NCBI GenBank assembly: GCA_977017645.1
Contig: OZ360239.1
Coordinates: 61,380,001-61,444,000 of the forward strand
Length of the DNA stretch: 64,000 nucleotides
From: Torpedo marmorata
Taxonomy: Eukaryota
Reading direction: 5' to 3'
The position numbers and the translations under genes were made by a program. Shown here one piece after another: positions 52,392 through 64,000 of the stretch (positions within the stretch are counted from its first letter, which is position 1; every line of letters begins with the position of its first letter). Below the pieces are notes generated by a model. It worked only from the letters and a program-made list of their open reading frames with translations, was not told the DNA's origin and did not search any database.

Positions 52392-54306
52392 ACACTAGCT
52401 TTTAATTAGCTTTACAAAAGGAATGTCTTAAACCAGAATGGGATTCCTTCAATTACCAAGATGGATTTTTAATTCAAATCCAAGGACGAGCCCCCAATTT
52501 TGTTACAAACTCAAACCAGCAATGACAGAAGACGCAATGCAAAAGGGGTAAAATTGAAATTTAAATTTATTAAAGACAATTAAACATATAATTTCACAAC
52601 AATTAACCCCACTATAAACGTCTATAAACACTATTCTTATCTAAAAAGTGTGTGTGTGTGTAAAGCCCAGACCATTACAGTCTGTGCCCAACCCTCATGT
52701 AAAAATGGAAAAACATTCCCCAAAAACCCCAGGTCAGTCATAAAAACAAGTCAGTCTAAAAAAATAATACAGTCCACAAAAATTCACTCTCTATGTTCAG
52801 GATCCAAATTCAGCTCTGTGTGCTGGCAAGAAGGACTTCTTAATGAACGTTGGAGAGAGACAATGACTGTTTATGCTTACGAATACTTGGCTTGCTTTTC
52901 TTCTCTGATGACTTTCCTATTTGGTAGAGATTCACAAGGATTGCGACTCCGAATCAGTATACCACTGATTGAGGCATGTACTTGGATCTCACAGCTGGTC
53001 TCGCTGATCTCACGCCTGTTCTCCACAAAAGTTGCTTTAACTCAGGATTTTGCTGAGACAGGAGGCCATGTGCTATTCTCCCAGCCTTTTTCCTGGGATG
53101 CACAAGCCTGGATTTTGCTGTGTTCTCTAGCCTTTGCAACTCCAAAACTGCCACTGAATCTGAATGGTTTTTTGCAGAGGTTTGCACCTGCTTTTGCAAA
53201 AGTGCAACAAAGTATCTCTCCACAGTCTCTCTCTCTCTCTGGTGTCTCTCTCTCTCTCTGTGAGTACAAGAAGTCCTGGGCAAGTTAACTCTTTCAGTAC
53301 CAGGTCCCAGTGTGTATCCAAAAAACTTCATCCTTCCTGCTGACCGTCCGCAGTCCAAATGGTCAGTCATGATCCATAACACAAGTCATTAATGTACATC
53401 ACAAACAACAGGGGTCCCAACACCGATCCCTGTGCAACACCTCTGGTCTCAGGCCTCCATCCCAATTAACACCCTTCCACCACTACCCTCTGTCTTCTAT
53501 GAGCCAGCCAATTCTGTATCCAAACTATTAACACACCATGTTTCCCATGCATCTGCACCTTCTGAATCAGCCTACCATGGGGGACCTTGTCAAGTGCCTT
53601 ACTAATGTCCACGTATACAACATCCACTCCCTACCCTCATCAACTATCCTGTCACCTCCTCAAAAAACTCAAATTGGTAAGACATGACGTGCCCCTTACA
53701 AAGCCATGTTGACTGTCCTTAATCTGATCATGGCTTTTAAAATGTTCATAAATCTTATCTCTGAGTATCTTTCCAATAGGTAGCCTGCCACTGATCTGAG
53801 GCGTCCTGGCCAATTATTTCCTGGATTATCTGATCTTCCCTACTTGAACACATGTACAACATGCCACTCTCCAGTCCTCTGGGATCTCTCCTGTTGTGAG
53901 GATGCAACTATCTTTGTCATGACCCCAACAAGCTCTTCACTTGTCTCTCTCAATAACTGGGGATATAGCCCATCAGGCCCAGGGTATTTGTCCACCTAAA
54001 TGCTCTTCAAAAGACCCAACACTGCCTCTTTCTTTTTTTTAAATTTTTATTATTTTATTTAAACTTTTAAATCACAAAATACATGAGATAAAATATAAAA
54101 TTATCAAAATACATGTGATATATTTTCACCCCCCCATCCTCCCTCCCCTCCCCAACCCTCCCATCCCCACTAATCTAATAAAAAATATAATAAAAATTAA
54201 AGTGAAATAGAAAAAAGAAAGAAAAGAATAGAATGAGGGGAATACCTTCTAAACTAATTCTATTATGGAGGTCAAGTATGCCAGCAGATCTGATATCTAG
54301 AGATCT

Positions 54307-57300
54307 TCAAATCCTTAAACCCACAGCTCTCATATATGGGCTCCAAATTTTCAAGAAAAAATGATATTTATTACGTAAATTATAAGTAATTTTTTCCAGT
54401 GGTATACACGAACGGAGTTCTGCATGCCATCTTTCTAATCCTAAATCTAAGTCAGATTTCCAAGTAATAGCAATGCATTTTTTTGAAACAGCTAAAGCAA
54501 TTCGCAAAAATTCTACTTGAAACATATTTAATTTCTTTTTAATACTAAATTTTTTAATATCTCCAAATAAAAATAACATAGGAACCATTGGAAATGCAAT
54601 ATTAAATACTTTATCTAAAAATTTTTTAACTTTCAACCAAAAATCTTGAATCTTTGGACAAAACCATGTAGAATGAACAAAAGAACCTTCCTCTCTATTG
54701 CATCTAAAACAAAAGCCTGATAATGTCGGATTAAATATCTTTAATTTTTTAGGTGTTAAATATAATTGATGAAAAAAATTATATTGTACTAATCTATATC
54801 TAACATTGATAATCTTCGTCATACTTAATTTACATAAATCTTTCCAATGATTTTCATCTATATTTACATTTAAATCTAATTCCCATTTTAATCTTGATTT
54901 ATGCAATCCTATTTTAGGCATTTTCCTCTGAAACAATTTATACATTTGAGAAATGAATTTATTAACATCTCCATTAGCAACTAATAATTCTAATTCATTT
55001 TGTCTTGGTAAAATCAAAGCATAACCTGATTTCTCAGTCAAAAAAGCTTTAACTTAATAATAAGCTAAAAATGTATTATCTGGTATATTAAATTTATCTT
55101 TCATTCTTTGAAACGTAATAAATTTTCCAGCTTCAAAACAATCATTAATCTTCTTAATACCTTTTTGAAACCAAATTTTAAGTAACTGATTATTAACAGT
55201 AAATGATATAAGTCCATTTTGATATAATGGCATATTTGAAGAAATTAATCCTCTTCCACCTATCTCTTTATCCGTCTTACCCCATATTTCTAACAAATGT
55301 TTAATAATCGGTGATTTTTTCTTTTTTAATGATATTAATTTAGAATCCCATTTATAAATAATTTCTTCTTTAAGATTTTCTCCTGTATTATTTAATTCTA
55401 TTTTAATCCAAGCAGAAGATTTAGTTGAATCAAAAAATTCATTGACAAATTTTAATTGAGCTGCTTTATAATAATTTTGAAAATTAGGAAGTTGCAATCC
55501 ACCCATCTCATAATTCCAGGTTAACTTTTCCATACTTACTCTTGCTAACTTTCCTTTCCATAAAAATTTCCTAATAATAAAATTTAAATCTTTAAAAAAA
55601 TTTTGAGGAATTCCAAAAGGATTTGATTGAAAAAGATACTGAACTCTTGGAAAAATATTCATTTTAATACAATTTACCCTTCCCATTAAAGTTATGGGTA
55701 AATCTTTCCAATTCTCTAAATCTTTCTTTATTTTCACAAATAATGGTAGATAATTTAATTTATATAAATTTTCCAATTTTGTATCAACCTTAACCCCCAA
55801 ATATTTAATTCCTTCTTTAGCCCATTTAAATTGTGTAATTTCTTTACATCTAGTATAATCACCTTGAGATAAAGCCATTATTTCACTTTTATCAGAATTA
55901 ATTTTATATCCAGATATTTCACCATATTCTCTTAATATAATAGATAGTTGTTGAAGTGATATAATAGATTTTGTCATATATATCAATACATCATCTGAAA
56001 ACAAACTAATCTTATGTTCTTCCATACCAACTTTAATACCCACTATCTTAGGATCTTTTCTAACTAATTCAGCCAAGGGTTCTATCGCCAAAACAAATAA
56101 AGCTGGTGACATGGGACATCCCTGTCTCGTAGAACGTGTCAAAGAAAATTTTGGCGATATTTGTCCATTTGTGATTACTTTAGCTGATGGTTCTTTATAT
56201 ATAGTTTTAATCCAATTTATAAATGTATTTCCAAAACCAAATTTTTCTAATACCTTAAATAAAAAATTCCATTCTAATCTATCAAAAGCCTTTTCAGCGT
56301 CTAATGTTACAACTAATGGTAAATCTTGTTTCTTTTTATGCAAACTAATTAAACTAATTAATCTAGCTATATTATCCTTTGAATATCTATTTTTAATAAA
56401 ACCAGCTTGGTCTATATGTATCAAATCTGGCAAATATTTAGCCATTCTGTTTGCTAAAATTTTTGCCATTATTTTATAATCTACATTTAATAATGAAATA
56501 GGTCTATATGATTCAGTTTTTAATACATCTCTATCCTTCTTTGGTATAACTGTAATTATAGCATTTAAGAATGTTTTCGGTAATGAATGAGTTTCCGTAA
56601 TTTGATCTAGTACTTCCATATATGGAGGTATCAATAAATCTTTAAATTCTTTATAAAATTCTGATGAAAACCCATCATCACCCGGAGATTTACCACTCTT
56701 CAGTGAAGAAAAAACTTCACTAACTTCCCTCATTGTGAAAGACAAATCTAAAGAGTCTCTACTCCAAATATTCAATTTAGGTAATATGATTTTAGATAGG
56801 AATCTATTAATTTTAGAATCATCTTGGTCAATCTGCGATTTATATAAATTCTGATAATCATCTTTAAAAGATTCATTTATCTCTTGAGGTTTATAAGTTA
56901 TTTCTCCAGTATTTTTCTTCCTTATAGCATTTATAGTTTTAGAAACTTGTTCTTTTTTCAATTGCCATGCCAAAACCTTATGTGCTCTTTCTCCTAATTC
57001 ATAATATCTTTGTTTAGTTTTCTCAATTAATGTTTCCATTTTATATGTTTGTAACAAATTATAATGTAATTTCTTCCCTATTAAACAATTTCTTTTTTGA
57101 ATTGATCTATTTCTCTGTAAGTCCTTCTCCATAAGTTCAATTTCCTTCTCAAGTTTTTCTGATTCCTTAAGATAATCTTTCTTAATTTTAACTGAATAGC
57201 TTATTATTAGACCCCTTAAATAAGCGTTTAAAGCTTCCCACACTATAAATTTATCATTAATAGAATTAACATTTATTCGTAAAAATTCCTGAATTTCTCT

Positions 57301-58100
57301 TCTTATATATTCACAAAAATCTTTCCTTTTTAATAACGACGAATCAAATCTCCAATTATATATAGTTTTTTCTTTTTCCGGAATTATACAAGACAATAAC
57401 AAAGGTGAATGATCAGAGATTACTCTCGCTTTATAGGATGCTTGCGTTATTCTATCTTGAACCTGTGATGATAATAAAAATAAGTCTATCCTAGAGTATG
57501 AATCATGCCTAAAAGAATAAAATGAATAATCTTTCTCCCTAGGGTTCAATCTCCTCCAAATGTCTATTAAATTTAAATCTTTCATCAAATTAAGAACTTT
57601 TTTAACAATTTTAGCTCTAACAGGTGATCTTTAGGTTTTATCCATTATTGAATCTAAACAACAATTGAAATCTCCCCCGATTAAAATATTCTCATTAGCG
57701 TCTGACAAATGCAAAAAGGCATCTTGAATAAACTGCTCATCATCTGGATTTGACACATATAAATTCATAAGTGTCCAAGATTCTGAATAAATTTGACAAT
57801 GTATCAACACATATCTTCCTGCTACATCTGTAACTACCGATTGTATCTTAAAAGGTAATTTTTTATTAATTAATATAGCTACGCCTCTTGCTTTAGAATT
57901 AAATGAAGAAGCCACCACATGACCAACCCACTCTCTTTTTAATTTTTGATGTTCCAGGTCTATCAAATGAGTCTCTTGTAAGAAAGCTATATCTACCCTC
58001 AACTTTTTAATATATGCTAAAGTTCTTTTTCTCTTAATCGGATTATTAAGCCCATTTATATTAATACTTACTAAATTTATATTCTTACTACCATCATAAT
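54307..58100 (-). pseudogene. L1 ORF2 (APE endonuclease-RT-Cys domain) with in-frame stops at 57631 and 55054
   Basis: SININGLN..AFLQETH..GGDFN..SRIDLF..SDHSP, RT motifs with FSDD in place of FADD, and the CFRC..H..C domain. Confidence 0.93.
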
Positions 58101-58374
58101 CAAATTGTAACAAATCTCTTTCAATCAAATCTACTAGCTTTCCCCTCCTAAATTGTAAACTACTTGATATCCCCTCAAGTAAAGTAAAAGATAGAAAGAA
58201 AAGAAAGAAAAACGAAAACCCCCGCATATAAAATACTGGCGTTTTTATCCCAGTATTACCCCCCTCCATTGTTCGAGAAGTGGCTCTCGCCACTAAGGTG
58301 GTGTACGGCTAGGAAGAAGAGATAAAACGTCCACCTCCCCCCAACAGATTAACGTAAACTTATACATAATATCT

Positions 58375-59742
58375 TCAATTAACTGATCCAATTTCCAAAT
58401 CTTCTTGTTCTTCCTCAGTCCGAACTCGAACCCTCTCCTCTCTTGGCAAAGAACTTGGTGAAGGAGCTTGTATTGGTTGATTTTCTTGATCTTGCTGACG
58501 ATTATTTATTCCTAAATTTTTGGTCAAATATGGAAGAGTTTGTGCATATTTATAAGCTTGTTGAGGATCCATAAACAGAATGAAGTCATTTCCATTACTT
58601 TGAACTCTCAAAGCCGCAGGATATTTAAACGAAAATTTATATCCTTTCTGCCAAAGTAATGCTTTTGTTGGGTTGAATTCTTTACGACTCTTAACTACTG
58701 CTGGACTTAAATCTGGATAAAAAAGCACTTTATTTCCACCCATCATCATTGGAGCTCTATTATCTCTCGCCTTCTGAATCGCTGCTCTTAATATTTTTTC
58801 TCTATCTTGATATCTAAGACATTTCATCAATACAGGACGTGGTCTCCGATCTATCTGATTTTGTCTCCCAATTCTATGTGCTCTTTCCAGCTCCACTGGT
58901 TTGTCAAAAGCAAAAGTTTGCATAAGCCAATCTTGAAAAAATTGAGTTGCATCTGGTGTTTCAGTATCTTCAGGCAATCCCAGTATTTTAACATTATTTC
59001 TTCGGCTTTGATTTTCCAATTGATCCATTTTTTGCATCAATTGATTTCTTTGTAATTCCCATCCTGTAAATGAATCATCTATTTTATCAACTCTTTCTCT
59101 ATAGTCCGTAAATTCATCATAATTATTCTTAACATCATCTTCAACTTTTTGAACTCTACTTTCCATTTTACTCACAGTATTTTCCAATCTCTTAATATTC
59201 TGCTTCACCTCTTTAAATTCTTGCTGCATATTAACTTCTCATCTTGAAATGGCCTGTAATATTTGCTGTTGATTTTCTTTTATAGACCAATATTCTGTAT
59301 TAGGGTCTTCTGGATAAGCTTCATATTCTTCAACTTCTAACTCTGAAGTCTGCTGGATATCCTTATCCTTGCCCTCTGAATCCGACGATGTATCCTGCTC
59401 CCCAGCATATAGTAATGTCTGGGGAGCATCTCTTCTCCTACTGAACTCCTCTGGTAATGCCCGCTGTAATTCGCGTATTCGCGTCGTTTCGCGCATGCGC
59501 GTTGCTTCCAACGGGACTCTTGTAGTTTTTCTCCAAGCGCCGGCGCCATCTTCCCCAGCTCCCTGAAAAGACAGCGCCGGCGCTACAGACTCACCAGATG
59601 ACCTTCCGCGCTGCGACTTTGACAAGGGCATTACGACAGCTCCAGGCTCCAGCAGACAGGTAGGCCGCTTTTCCTCTTGTATTAAAGTTGATTGAATCAT
59701 TGCTTTCCTTGCTTTCTGTTCCTTCGATTTTTTAGAGGCCAT
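58375..59742 (-). pseudogene. L1 ORF1 (coiled coil plus RRM/CTD), one frameshift at ~59235
   Basis: LENQSRRNNVKILGLPE, ELERAHR, RPRPVL, FYPDLS..RKEF, FKYPAAL. Confidence 0.92.
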
Positions 59743-60002
59743 TGTTAAGAAGCTAATAATAATTTTCAAACTGTTTAAAAACTTTTAAAGTTAAATAAAA
59801 AGGCTTCTTGGTCTAATCTGTGGGGAGAGGTGTATTTTCACGTCTTCTACCTACGCCATCACGCCACGCCCCCCACACTGCCTCTTTCTTGATCTCAAAA
59901 TGTCCTATTACTGTCCATTTCCTTCCTGGTGAACACCAATACAAAGTACTCATTTAGTACCTCATCCACCTCCTCTGACTCCAACCAGAAATTCCCTCTT
60001 TT

Positions 60003-60988: not shown

Positions 60989-61303
60989 TCTTTTTTTTTA
61001 TTTTTTAAAAAATATTTTATTTAAAATTTTAAATCACAAAATACATAAAGTAAAATATGAAAATATCAAAATACTTGTGATACATTTTCATCCCCCCTCC
61101 CTCCCTCCCCTCCCTAACCCTCCCATCCCTACTAATCTACTAAAAGAAAAAGAAAAAGAAAAGAAAAAGATAGAATAAGGAGAATGTCAATCTAAAAAAA
61201 ATACATCTATAACTAATTTTATTATGGAGGATAGGTTCGCCAGTCAAATCCGATGTCCAGAGATCATCAAATCCTTAAACCAACAGCCTTCATATATGGG
61301 CTC
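60989..61303 (-). mobile_element. L1 3' end (relative of the full-length family) interrupted by the BEL/Pao element
   Basis: Similar to 54035-54345; stops abruptly at catatatgggctc|tgtagc. Confidence 0.88.
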
Positions 61304-61477
61304 TGTAGCGACTTCGTCCAATAAAAAATAGTCACTTGGAGGCTAAGTTAGGTGTTTGTCTGCGACGCGTTTTCATTCATTTACCAACAAAGTCCAAAAT
61401 GTTCAAAAACCTTTATTTACATTTGACTTGCAGTAATCTTCAAGTGACTTCAATACAAACAGTCCTTTAAATGATGT

Positions 61478-61598
61478 AAAACAATGTAAAACGATGTAAA
61501 AGGTTATAAAACGTGTTCCAAAACATGTTAAACGGTCCTAAACGATGTTAAACGTGTTCCAAAAGTGTTAAACGGTCCTAAACGATGTTAAACGGTCG
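61478..61598. repeat. Degenerate ~10-bp tandem repeat inside the BEL LTR
   Basis: Units aaacgatgtt, aaacggtcct and aaacgtgttcc. Confidence 0.8.
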
Positions 61599-62336
61599 AC
61601 AGGAATTGTCGACACCTAACTCACCCTCCTCAGATTTCCAACTGCCGACTCGCGCGGGGGAACCTATATTTAAACGAGGATCCCACCCGTGCATGCTCCG
61701 TTGTACGCGCGCTGGCACCCGGCTCCAACCGCTCGCCGCCGGGGCTGAGCCAACCGCGCATGCGTCAACCTAGTCCATGGTGCATGCGCACTGATGGACA
61801 TGCCGGCCCCGGCTGAAGCTGCCGCTGCCGAGCCAACCACGCATGCGCCGCCACGCTCCAGCTCCGTAAGCGGTGGCGGCGCTCGCGCTGGTGCGGCCTA
61901 CGGAAGAGGCCTACGGACCCCGGAACACCGCTGGCGTCCGTGGCCAAAACAGAAGGTATGTAGTGAGCCTATGGCTCTTACACCGGCCCCTAATTATTAT
62001 AATGAGATGTAACGTCTCTAATAATAATTACATTATAAAATTATAATAACAATAACCATATAACATTCAAACAAATATACAAATCTTTTCTTCTTTCTTC
62101 ACAAGACCAGAGTTTACTATAACTCTGGATGAATAAAATTCTGTAACCTGAAATATACAACAACAAATAAAGTCAGTTTACATTTATCAAAGTTCCTCCT
62201 TTGTCTTGAAAAGTCTCAATAATTTTTCCAAGTAACCAGGAGTTTCTTGAAGTTGAATTATCCATAATAATCACAATGCCTCTTTAAAGTTCTTTTATCT
62301 CTATAATCTTTGAGTTAAAACGTCAACCAGTAAACT

Positions 62337-63338
62337 TCAAATCTTCCTCAGATAAAATAGATAAAGTTTTTCTTTGAATTTAACACAAGGCACTTCTTCA
62401 ACATGTCGTTTCACTTTATTTCTTTTTTCAGTATTCCACTTCTCATGTGAAGAATTTAAACTCCTAGAACTAGAATTTGAATATTTATTTGATCCTTTCG
62501 ATTTTAAACAGGTCTGTTTAACCACTCTGGTTTCTATTGCTTTTTCCTGCAATTCCAAATCCAATTTTGCAACTTTCAATTCGGTCTCAGTTCTTTTCGA
62601 GAAATTAATAATTTGATCTGAAGTTAAAATATCATGTGATACATTGATATTTCCATTGTCAATCCTGTTGCGGCAAACTTGAAATTTTTTAATTTCTTCG
62701 TCTTGCTTGTTACATTTCTGCAATGCAATATTACATTCTTTCTGCATTGTTAATTGTTTTGTGTTATTAATCAATAACTTGTTCTCTATCAAAACATTAA
62801 TCTCTTCCTCCAACCTTTTACATTTTGTTAATGCTGAATCTCTTTCCTCAATAACTGTATTCATTTCTTCAGCAGTTATTCTTTTCTTCCGCTTTCTGAC
62901 TTTGCGAGTTTTACTTACAATTAAATCTTTCTGTTTACTGTTTTCTTGATTATCTAATATTTCCAATTCCCCTTTCAACATTTTGTTCTCTGAATTCAAT
63001 TGCATTAAATTATCATTCGCATTATTCTTTATTCCATCAGCACAATTTTCTGTGTTTTCCAGTTTTACATCACATTGTAATCTTTCTTCGTTAGCTTTGT
63101 CTGTTGTAATCTCTGAACTACAAAATCTACATTCAGATTTGTTTTCAGTCACTTGTTTTATTCCTGTATTGGATTCATTTACACATGAATGATCAATAGT
63201 ATTATTTGCAACATCTTCTAATACTTCACTTTCATCCTTTTCTGACGAAATTAATTCCTTCAATGTTGTTTTAAATACCATTGATTTATTTTCACATTGA
63301 TCTGTTTTCTTTTCTTCAAAAGTGATTTTCTTATTCAC
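62337..63338 (-). CDS. Coiled-coil ORF inside the BEL/Pao element with MIPOL1-like segments (probable captured host sequence)
   Basis: 333 open codons. RITAEEMNTVIEERDSALTKCKRLEEEI and KLDLELQEKAIETRV resemble vertebrate MIPOL1 as recalled; not database-checked. Confidence 0.65.
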   Translation of the reverse strand: MNKKITFEEKKTDQCENKSMVFKTTLKELISSEKDESEVLEDVANNTIDHSCVNESNTGIKQVTENKSECRFCSSEITTDKANEERLQCDVKLENTENCADGIKNNANDNLMQLNSENKMLKGELEILDNQENSKQKDLIVSKTRKVRKRKKRITAEEMNTVIEERDSALTKCKRLEEEINVLIENKLLINNTKQLTMQKECNIALQKCNKQDEEIKKFQVCRNRIDNGNINVSHDILTSDQIINFSKRTETELKVAKLDLELQEKAIETRVVKQTCLKSKGSNKYSNSSSRSLNSSHEKWNTEKRNKVKRHVEEVPCVKFKEKLYLFYLRKI

Positions 63339-63401
63339 GGTTTTTTGCTCTTGCTTAACTCTTCAACTTTCTGAACCGAAATTCTATTAATATTTATCGC
63401 T

Positions 63402-63597
63402 CTCATTCTATTTCTTTCCTTTTAACTAACATTTCTATATATTTTTTTTTCTCTTTATTAGAATAGTGTGGGAGGGCTGGGGAGGGGAGGGAGGGAAGGG
63501 GGGATGGTAAAAATATCACATGTATTTTGAATAATATATTATTTTTGACTATGTATTTTGTGATTTTAAAAATTAAATAAAAATTTAAAAAAAAAAA
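63402..63597 (+). mobile_element. Very short L1 3'-UTR insertion in the BEL/Pao ORF
   Basis: G-rich L1 3' UTR and poly(A). 13-bp TSD aatatttatcgct at 63389-63401 and 63598-63610. Confidence 0.9.
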
Positions 63598-64000
63598 AAT
63601 ATTTATCGCTAACTGTTCCTGAGCAATATCATTATTTCTTTCCAGTGGTCCATTGATTGTCCAACCAAACTTGGTTCTAATAGTGTAAGGTCCATTCCTT
63701 TTACTCTCTATTACTTCTTTCGGTTCCAAAACCTTTGGCACATCTGAACCAATCAGCATTTCTATCTCAGAATTAATTTCAGGTAAATAAACCTTCCACA
63801 GATAAGCTAAATGATGGATATCCCTTTGATGAGGAATATTTCCTTCATTCACAGGCATAGTCTTCTGAGGATATACACTTGGAAGATCACAAAATTTTTT
63901 GTCATCCAATCCAGCAACCTCTAAGCCTGAAACAATGTTAGTTTCAACAACCTTTTCTTGTCCCATTGTTCTTAACATAATTCTTGATCTTTTTCCTTGA

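Follow-up and report, generated by a model that had tools for sequence, protein, structure and literature searches.

What occupies the place of the polymerase core in a BEL/Pao element at the end of a 64,000-nucleotide stretch of the Torpedo marmorata genome (hereafter, the window), and by what route did it arrive there? A sequence-only reading of this DNA had described a minus-strand BEL protease and linker interrupted by a 196-bp L1 insert, followed after one frameshift by a 333-codon, MIPOL1-like open reading frame, and then by the extreme C-terminus of an integrase, the polypurine tract (PPT), and the LTR, without a reverse transcriptase (RT), RNaseH, or DDE core. The backbone of that description is confirmed: the minus strand from 64000 to 61304 reads protease C-terminus (marked by the motif TKFGWTINGPL), L1 insert, pol linker, cargo frame, integrase stub, PPT, and LTR (Table 1). 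When the window copy is aligned to full-length BEL copies, ∼3.2 kb of pol is skipped and an integrase C-terminal stub remains, with no RT, RNaseH, or DDE core between the protease and the integrase remnant. The L1 insert has a poly-T and a duplicated target of ∼12 bp, and does not occur in other aligned copies of the element. The gag and 5′ LTR of this copy fall outside the window (G000:C52 up to 61447411) and were recovered, as was the repeated target site, from the adjoining stretch, giving a whole element of 6,107 bp. The gag matches DUF1759 (E 4.9e-6); in the test for a BEL-type gag-protease, a DUF1758 match (E 0.003) falls below the cut-off. Lacking the RT, RNaseH, and integrase core that follow the protease in an autonomous BEL/Pao element, the element is a non-autonomous BEL/Pao LTR retrotransposon with its 3′ part in the window. 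Elsewhere in the window, a near full-length L1/Tx1-like LINE occupies 54000-59900 on the minus strand, with frames for ORF1 (58375-59238), endonuclease (57631-58308), and RT (55054-57630).

Table 1. Features of the element in the window, in minus-strand order.
Feature	Position	Strand	Remark
BEL/Pao aspartic protease region, C-terminal part	63598..64000	-	90-94% identity to intact BEL copies
L1 3′ end, 196 bp, secondary insertion, reverse to element	63402..63597	+	inverted match to L1 tails
Protease/RT linker stub (AININRISV...), final BEL pol sequence ahead of cargo	63348..63401	-	
BRCA1-derived piece, spliced colinear exons	62928..63347	-	skate BRCA1 E 8e-42, 65%; host gene G000:C61
MIPOL1 exons g (3′ part), h, i; intron-free	62668..62927	-	host gene G000:C40
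MIPOL1 exons c and d, downstream of exon i	62516..62667	-	
Elongin A (ELOA) remnants, spliced, colinear	62305..62515	-	host gene G000:C41
Integrase C-terminal remnant (..RNSWLLGKIIETFQDK..)	62190..62283	-	past cargo stop codon; ~90% identical to intact BEL copies
Polypurine tract	61983..61996	-	same sequence as helper family's
3′ LTR, TG...CA, 679 bp	61304..61982	-	97.1% identity with 5′ LTR
5-bp TSD GAGCC	61299..61303	-	repeated ahead of 5′ LTR

The long open frame is present, at 341 codons from stop to stop (62337-63362, minus strand). The frameshift ahead of it, which breaks the window copy within the linker stub, is damage in this copy only, because 14 of 26 sampled copies (30 were fetched by position and 4 tandem repeats dropped; four of the 14 are near-identical duplicates) read in a single frame from the protease through the cargo.

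In this cargo frame, stretches of BRCA1, MIPOL1, and Elongin A (ELOA) without introns are fused, and each was mapped to its host gene in this genome. The resemblance to MIPOL1 noticed earlier is genuine but confined to aa ∼147-283, with BRCA1 at aa ∼8-146 and Elongin A at aa ∼288-330. Sawfish MIPOL1 is the best match of the frame (E 1.7e-16), further matches are to shark and ray MIPOL1, the named proteins among the 120 matches listed of 179 are MIPOL1, and the top match in the Atlas is also MIPOL1 (0.96). Pfam returned no match for the 341-aa frame, and no MIPOL1 model was returned from that library. For the BRCA1 part, Atlas leads were below 0.8 and an HMMER library search made the identification; the part aligns with skate BRCA1 aa 204-370, and the window piece spans aa ∼198-370 of shark and skate BRCA1. 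Generic RING matches from a first search for the host BRCA1 gene were discarded before that gene was placed on its contig. The downstream part matches Elongin A of Narcine at 82%, and the nearest named proteins of the cargo pieces are from batoids. The MIPOL1 g-h-i part encodes a coiled coil that contains the basic stretch KVRKRKKR. The GC content of the window cargo is 31%, vs 38% for the host exons, and the fusion protein was found in no database protein of 187-597 aa or 603-1922 aa. The cargo has neither a poly(A) nor a TSD of its own, and consists of intron-free partial host RNA lying between both LTRs; the earlier proposal that an LTR retrotransposon transduced host mRNA into its polyprotein is upheld by the absence of introns and the spliced pieces in one frame.

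A genome search with sawfish MIPOL1 recovered the host gene and older copies of the element at ∼75-85% protein identity, in which MIPOL1 aa 340-470 run straight into aa 210-300. Exon-by-exon mapping of 33 older loci (15 of them chosen by junction pattern) showed a BEL gag-protease-RT stub followed by spliced BRCA1 exons (at most four, starting at aa ∼163), MIPOL1 exons g′-h-i-c-d with 18 nt of exon e, spliced ELOA exons (at most five, aa ∼372-621), and finally the BEL 3′ stub, with identities to the host exons of mostly 87-98%. Among 11 loci chosen by ELOA matches alone, the i-c joint is intact in seven, two keep the order with a damaged joint, and the MIPOL1 piece is absent from the stretch in two. 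The exon-exon joints of the cargo all match host splice sites, and the inter-gene joints fall within exons. Between MIPOL1 and ELOA there is a ∼19-nt linker outside the assigned host pieces, and by eye, short shared stretches can be seen at the BRCA1-MIPOL1 and ELOA-BEL joints. One sub-lineage (L126, L127, L128, and L136) has an additional ELOA piece upstream, and L127 also has a piece of cytoplasmic isoleucyl-tRNA synthetase (IARS1) after ELOA (E 1.7e-61); capture has therefore been serial. IARS1-like residues also occur at the end of L136. In L190 (1335-2330), the MIPOL1 g′-h-i-c′ unit (∼405 nt) is in tandem, with internal joints within exons.

The order of the MIPOL1 exons, with g-h-i first and c-d-e after them, is not that of the gene. 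In the host, exon i ends in ...TACTACAG followed by a GT donor, and exon c starts, behind a TAG acceptor, with CAGGGCTG; in the older copies, ...TACTACAG CAGGGCTG... spans the joint, exactly from the donor of exon i to the acceptor of exon c. A 22-mer of this exact joint occurs at 178 loci (control, 0). In the window copy the joint (∼62668|62667) is diverged, and the i-c region in one copy of the same young family aligns without gaps to the older copies. Elsewhere in the MIPOL1 piece, all joints are those of normal splicing. The piece enters inside exon g and leaves inside exon e, both ends lying within exons, and exons b, f, and j were not seen in the 33 older loci, such that the MIPOL1 cargo is confined to the exons of a putative circle. 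Exons c to i sum to 780 nt, a stop-free multiple of three, and lie between a 49.6-kb and a 61.8-kb intron; such long introns on either side are in keeping with exons that form circles. Up to 10 kb from the splice sites of the putative circle there is no strong inverted repeat, and one match of 188 nt has 69% identity. The i-to-c joint is likely the signature of a back-spliced circular RNA of 780 nt.

Two other sources could give the same scrambled order. A linear RNA with repeated exons, from a tandem duplication of c-i or from trans-splicing, would produce the same donor-acceptor joint, and a capture old enough for the older copies to be 2-13% off the host exons leaves time for a duplication to be lost; yet the 330-kb host locus has every mipol1 exon just once, a duplication would have needed more than 200 kb, and the long flanking introns suit circle-forming exons, which together make this origin improbable. 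Still less probable is a backward jump of the reverse transcriptase on ordinary mipol1 mRNA at microhomology coinciding with splice junctions. The 3 nt of microhomology at the i-c joint would permit such a jump, the remaining cargo joints are template-switch-like, and Tan et al. (2016; PMC5131818) note one template switch close to the joint of two exons; however, the inter-gene joints of the cargo sit inside exons, and of the in-frame backward jumps possible across exons b-j, 6,098 have microhomology of 3 nt or more and just three of these join an exon end to an exon start, so that a chance polymerase jump is unlikely. From the joint, the intron lengths, and the confinement of the cargo to exons c-i, we strongly favor a circle over other sources of the scrambled joint.

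The cargo belongs to a large replicating family, as the sequence-only reading had surmised. A 22-mer from the MIPOL1-derived cargo has 16,329 exact occurrences in the 6.2-Gb assembly (control, 0), setting the family at 16,329 loci or more, and a search with the DNA of the cargo frame turned up 3,638 candidates, with 40 scored matches at 97-100%. If every locus is assumed to be ∼5.8 kb, the family takes up ∼95 Mb or ∼1.5% of the assembly, an upper-side figure. A survey of element ends used 14 of 19 ten-kb loci, with five left out as apparently interrupted or nested. Of the copies with both ends (n = 13), 11 have an exact 5-bp TSD, one has a TSD with one mismatch, and one has none; the LTR pairs of 12 copies are 95.5-98.6% identical, and young copies are mutually 91-99% alike. 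Multiple LTR-flanked, intronless copies thus exist, and these loci and TSDs exclude the suggestion that the frame is a single processed pseudogene inserted into a dead BEL copy. Five cargo-pattern matches (L210-L214; G000:C1:1.498-1.518 Mb) have a constant 4,964-bp period, and form a tandem array of the element. Four copies lie in the introns of mipol1 itself (G000:C40:64.34-64.50 Mb; L074, L080, L088, and L089). On the small contigs C2005 and C1027, L134 and L135 have a stretch with the ELOA part only and an identical 822-nt insertion; similar ELOA-part matches on C2005 and C2476 suggest segmental amplification.

A helper BEL family exists in this genome, and shares gag-protease ancestry with the cargo family. 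Its full-length copies have PF05380-bearing frames of 2,043-2,134 aa, and their LTR pairs reach 100% identity; in nine of the ten examined, the gag-protease is 90-94% like that of the window copy, and the one helper copy checked for it has the same PPT. Part of the LTR is also common to the helper family and the cargo family. RT and integrase would very probably be supplied in trans by the helper. A first look found 6,618 candidates for the helper-type PF05380 domain vs 16,329 cargo loci, counts that are not like for like. In a protease tree (49 rows, midpoint root), nine helper copies and 19 young cargo copies cluster (100/100), apart from the older cargo copies, and the young-versus-old dS is 0.58 for the protease and 0.30 for the cargo. 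Because of this grouping and the unlike dS values, we infer different histories for cargo and backbone, with repeated exchange with the helper.

The reading frame is conserved. In 10 young and 10 older copies, a stop is the commonest codon in 0 of 335 columns; a neutral simulation with an assumed mutation spectrum expects ∼7-9 stops in 298 codons. Six deletions separate a young copy from the older copy L064 (24, 120, 81, 195, 3, and 111 nt), all in frame; an additional 24-nt deletion is polymorphic, and the two older copies used for comparison disagree in the remaining gaps. Of 19 indels confined to single copies, 5 preserve the frame, as do 3 of 4 shared polymorphic indels, the exception being 2 nt in 4 copies. 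The ratio of nonsynonymous to synonymous change, for which the sequence-only reading had proposed a comparison among copies, lies below 1 in the cargo (omega 0.65, 0.45-1.00), although its interval reaches 1.0, vs 0.29 (0.18-0.42) for the protease. In one test, the MIPOL1 part showed a deficit of shared nonsynonymous variants (ratio 0.32; p 0.027 in the wider sample), and a MIPOL1-specific purifying signal was rejected when it vanished in the wider sample once CpG-type changes were removed. Given no fixed stops, in-frame deletions, and a weak omega, the open frame is therefore under selection and the amino-acid sequence barely so; any protein-level selection on the cargo would be weak.

That the frame is open by accident of recent, passive amplification, with the cargo unselected, is highly improbable: young copies are 91-99% alike and many of their frames could be open through youth alone, but the dS of ∼0.3 between young and older copies, with no fixed stop and all six fixed deletions in frame, speaks against it. 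The main rival to a cargo that is simply translated through is a working accessory protein, a coiled-coil scaffold with an NLS-like basic stretch that might serve, e.g., in particle assembly or nuclear entry. Retention of the frame across this dS, the cargo omega, and the MIPOL1 coiled-coil core (20-mers exact in 35 of 36 copies) would fit such a protein, as would the excess of cargo loci over first-look helper-type candidates, to the extent that these unlike counts can be compared. Against it stand the omega interval touching 1.0, the single-copy ratios of 0.8-0.9 in the BRCA1 and MIPOL1 parts, and the large in-frame deletions that recurrently trim all three pieces, to the point that some subfamilies are without most of BRCA1 or MIPOL1 exon g. 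We regard an accessory function as doubtful, and the cargo as likely translated filler. On balance, the frame appears to be kept because the element RNA benefits when translation runs on to a stop close to the 3′ end, rather than for a job of the cargo protein, a preference we hold with some reserve; the benefit of translating through the cargo could lie in RNA stability or in cis-packaging by the element's own Gag, as general knowledge would suggest.

Taken together, the evidence makes it probable that a non-autonomous BEL/Pao family captured BRCA1, circular MIPOL1 (circMIPOL1), and ELOA sequence in place of its pol core, and has been copied by a helper with the cargo as translated filler. 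In the route we propose, host RNAs, a stable circMIPOL1 among them, would be co-packaged in BEL particles, where the reverse transcriptase would switch template to them and back, with the loss of most of pol; acquisition of the pieces by template switching on co-packaged RNAs is very probable. The MIPOL1 piece would be an arc of the circle, entered in exon g and left in exon e. Products in frame would make their own Gag-protease and take RT and integrase from the helper, and later the cargo would have been trimmed by in-frame deletions and have drifted toward AT-rich sequence. Three features go beyond the sequence-only reading, namely the three source genes, the apparently back-spliced exon order, and selection mainly on the open frame. 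A bolder account, in which a circular RNA was reverse-transcribed within an LTR-retrotransposon particle, the element collects RNAs serially (BRCA1, circMIPOL1, ELOA twice, and IARS1) and trades gag-protease with its helper, and the circRNA-derived cargo is translated, frame-selected, and advantageous, seems to us unlikely as a whole. If true, a captured coiled coil or host-matching RNA would confer a replication advantage on the element, and the circRNA-derived part would sit in a mobile element that ranks among the most abundant in this giant ray genome (up to ∼1.5% of it).

Related captures are known. According to Tan et al. (2016; PMC5131818), animal LTR elements can have the internal ORF partly replaced by partial mRNAs via template switches, including multi-gene chimeras (two genes in the Pao element BATUMI, four in one mouse locus), with further rounds as non-autonomous elements. 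The ray element is similar in having its internal ORF replaced by multi-gene partial mRNAs, whereas the cases described there are individual young retrocopies, the word "circular" does not occur in the main text, and from the ray chimera a family has grown to more than 16,000 copies, with a long-conserved frame and a putatively back-spliced piece. Maize Bs1 is an LTR element with segments of three host genes in a chimeric reading frame, as its treatment in a review (PMC13317346) describes, and likewise joins three genes in one frame; it differs in being a plant element with other cargo genes, and that treatment mentions no back-spliced cargo. In mouse, 33 high-confidence circRFWD2 pseudogene copies with LTR-rich flanks were reported, and their mechanism was called mysterious (Dong et al., 2016; PMC4897178). 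A non-colinear exon-exon junction and an association with LTRs are common to both systems; the ray junction, however, belongs to an identified LTR element that has TSDs and a helper, lies in frame with gag-protease and between two other captured RNAs, and reaches a copy number hundreds of times higher.

Oncogene-transducing defective retroviruses are helper-dependent and have a gag-host fusion in place of pol. The ray element is likewise replication-defective with host sequence replacing pol, but it is a germline BEL/Pao element in which no env was seen and the constraint on the cargo protein is slight.

A search of the openly accessible literature showed nothing on this family or on back-spliced cargo within an LTR polyprotein frame, and the available portion of a shark-and-ray genome preprint mentions neither the family nor back-spliced LTR cargo. 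LTR capture of mRNA and circRNA pseudogenes are known separately, and their combination in a family this large appears new.

A template switch onto a co-packaged circle would provide a concrete route for circRNA retroposition, left unexplained by Dong et al. (2016; PMC4897178), and both the entry and exit points of the proposed switch are visible in the cargo. In a vertebrate, moreover, the copies of a gene-capturing LTR element can number in the tens of thousands. Fragments of BRCA1, MIPOL1, and ELOA have thereby been seeded genome-wide, which is a clear annotation hazard and makes small-RNA or antisense effects on those genes possible. The subfamily series may preserve, like fossils, a record of RNAs from germline or embryo, and offers a natural test of why non-autonomous elements retain long open frames.

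Words of the older cargo stretch were also found in sequencing runs (X1-X19) from nine organisms and ten studies, mostly at small shares. Assembled contigs from three runs guessed to be RNA span the i-c joint; transcripts of the element carry this junction as well, and such contigs can show neither expression nor circularity. Together with the range of organisms, they hint that the element family is older than the host species. In one run guessed to be RNA, contigs depart from the cargo at identical positions, passing into exon j and coming from exon b, which agrees with the proposed capture.
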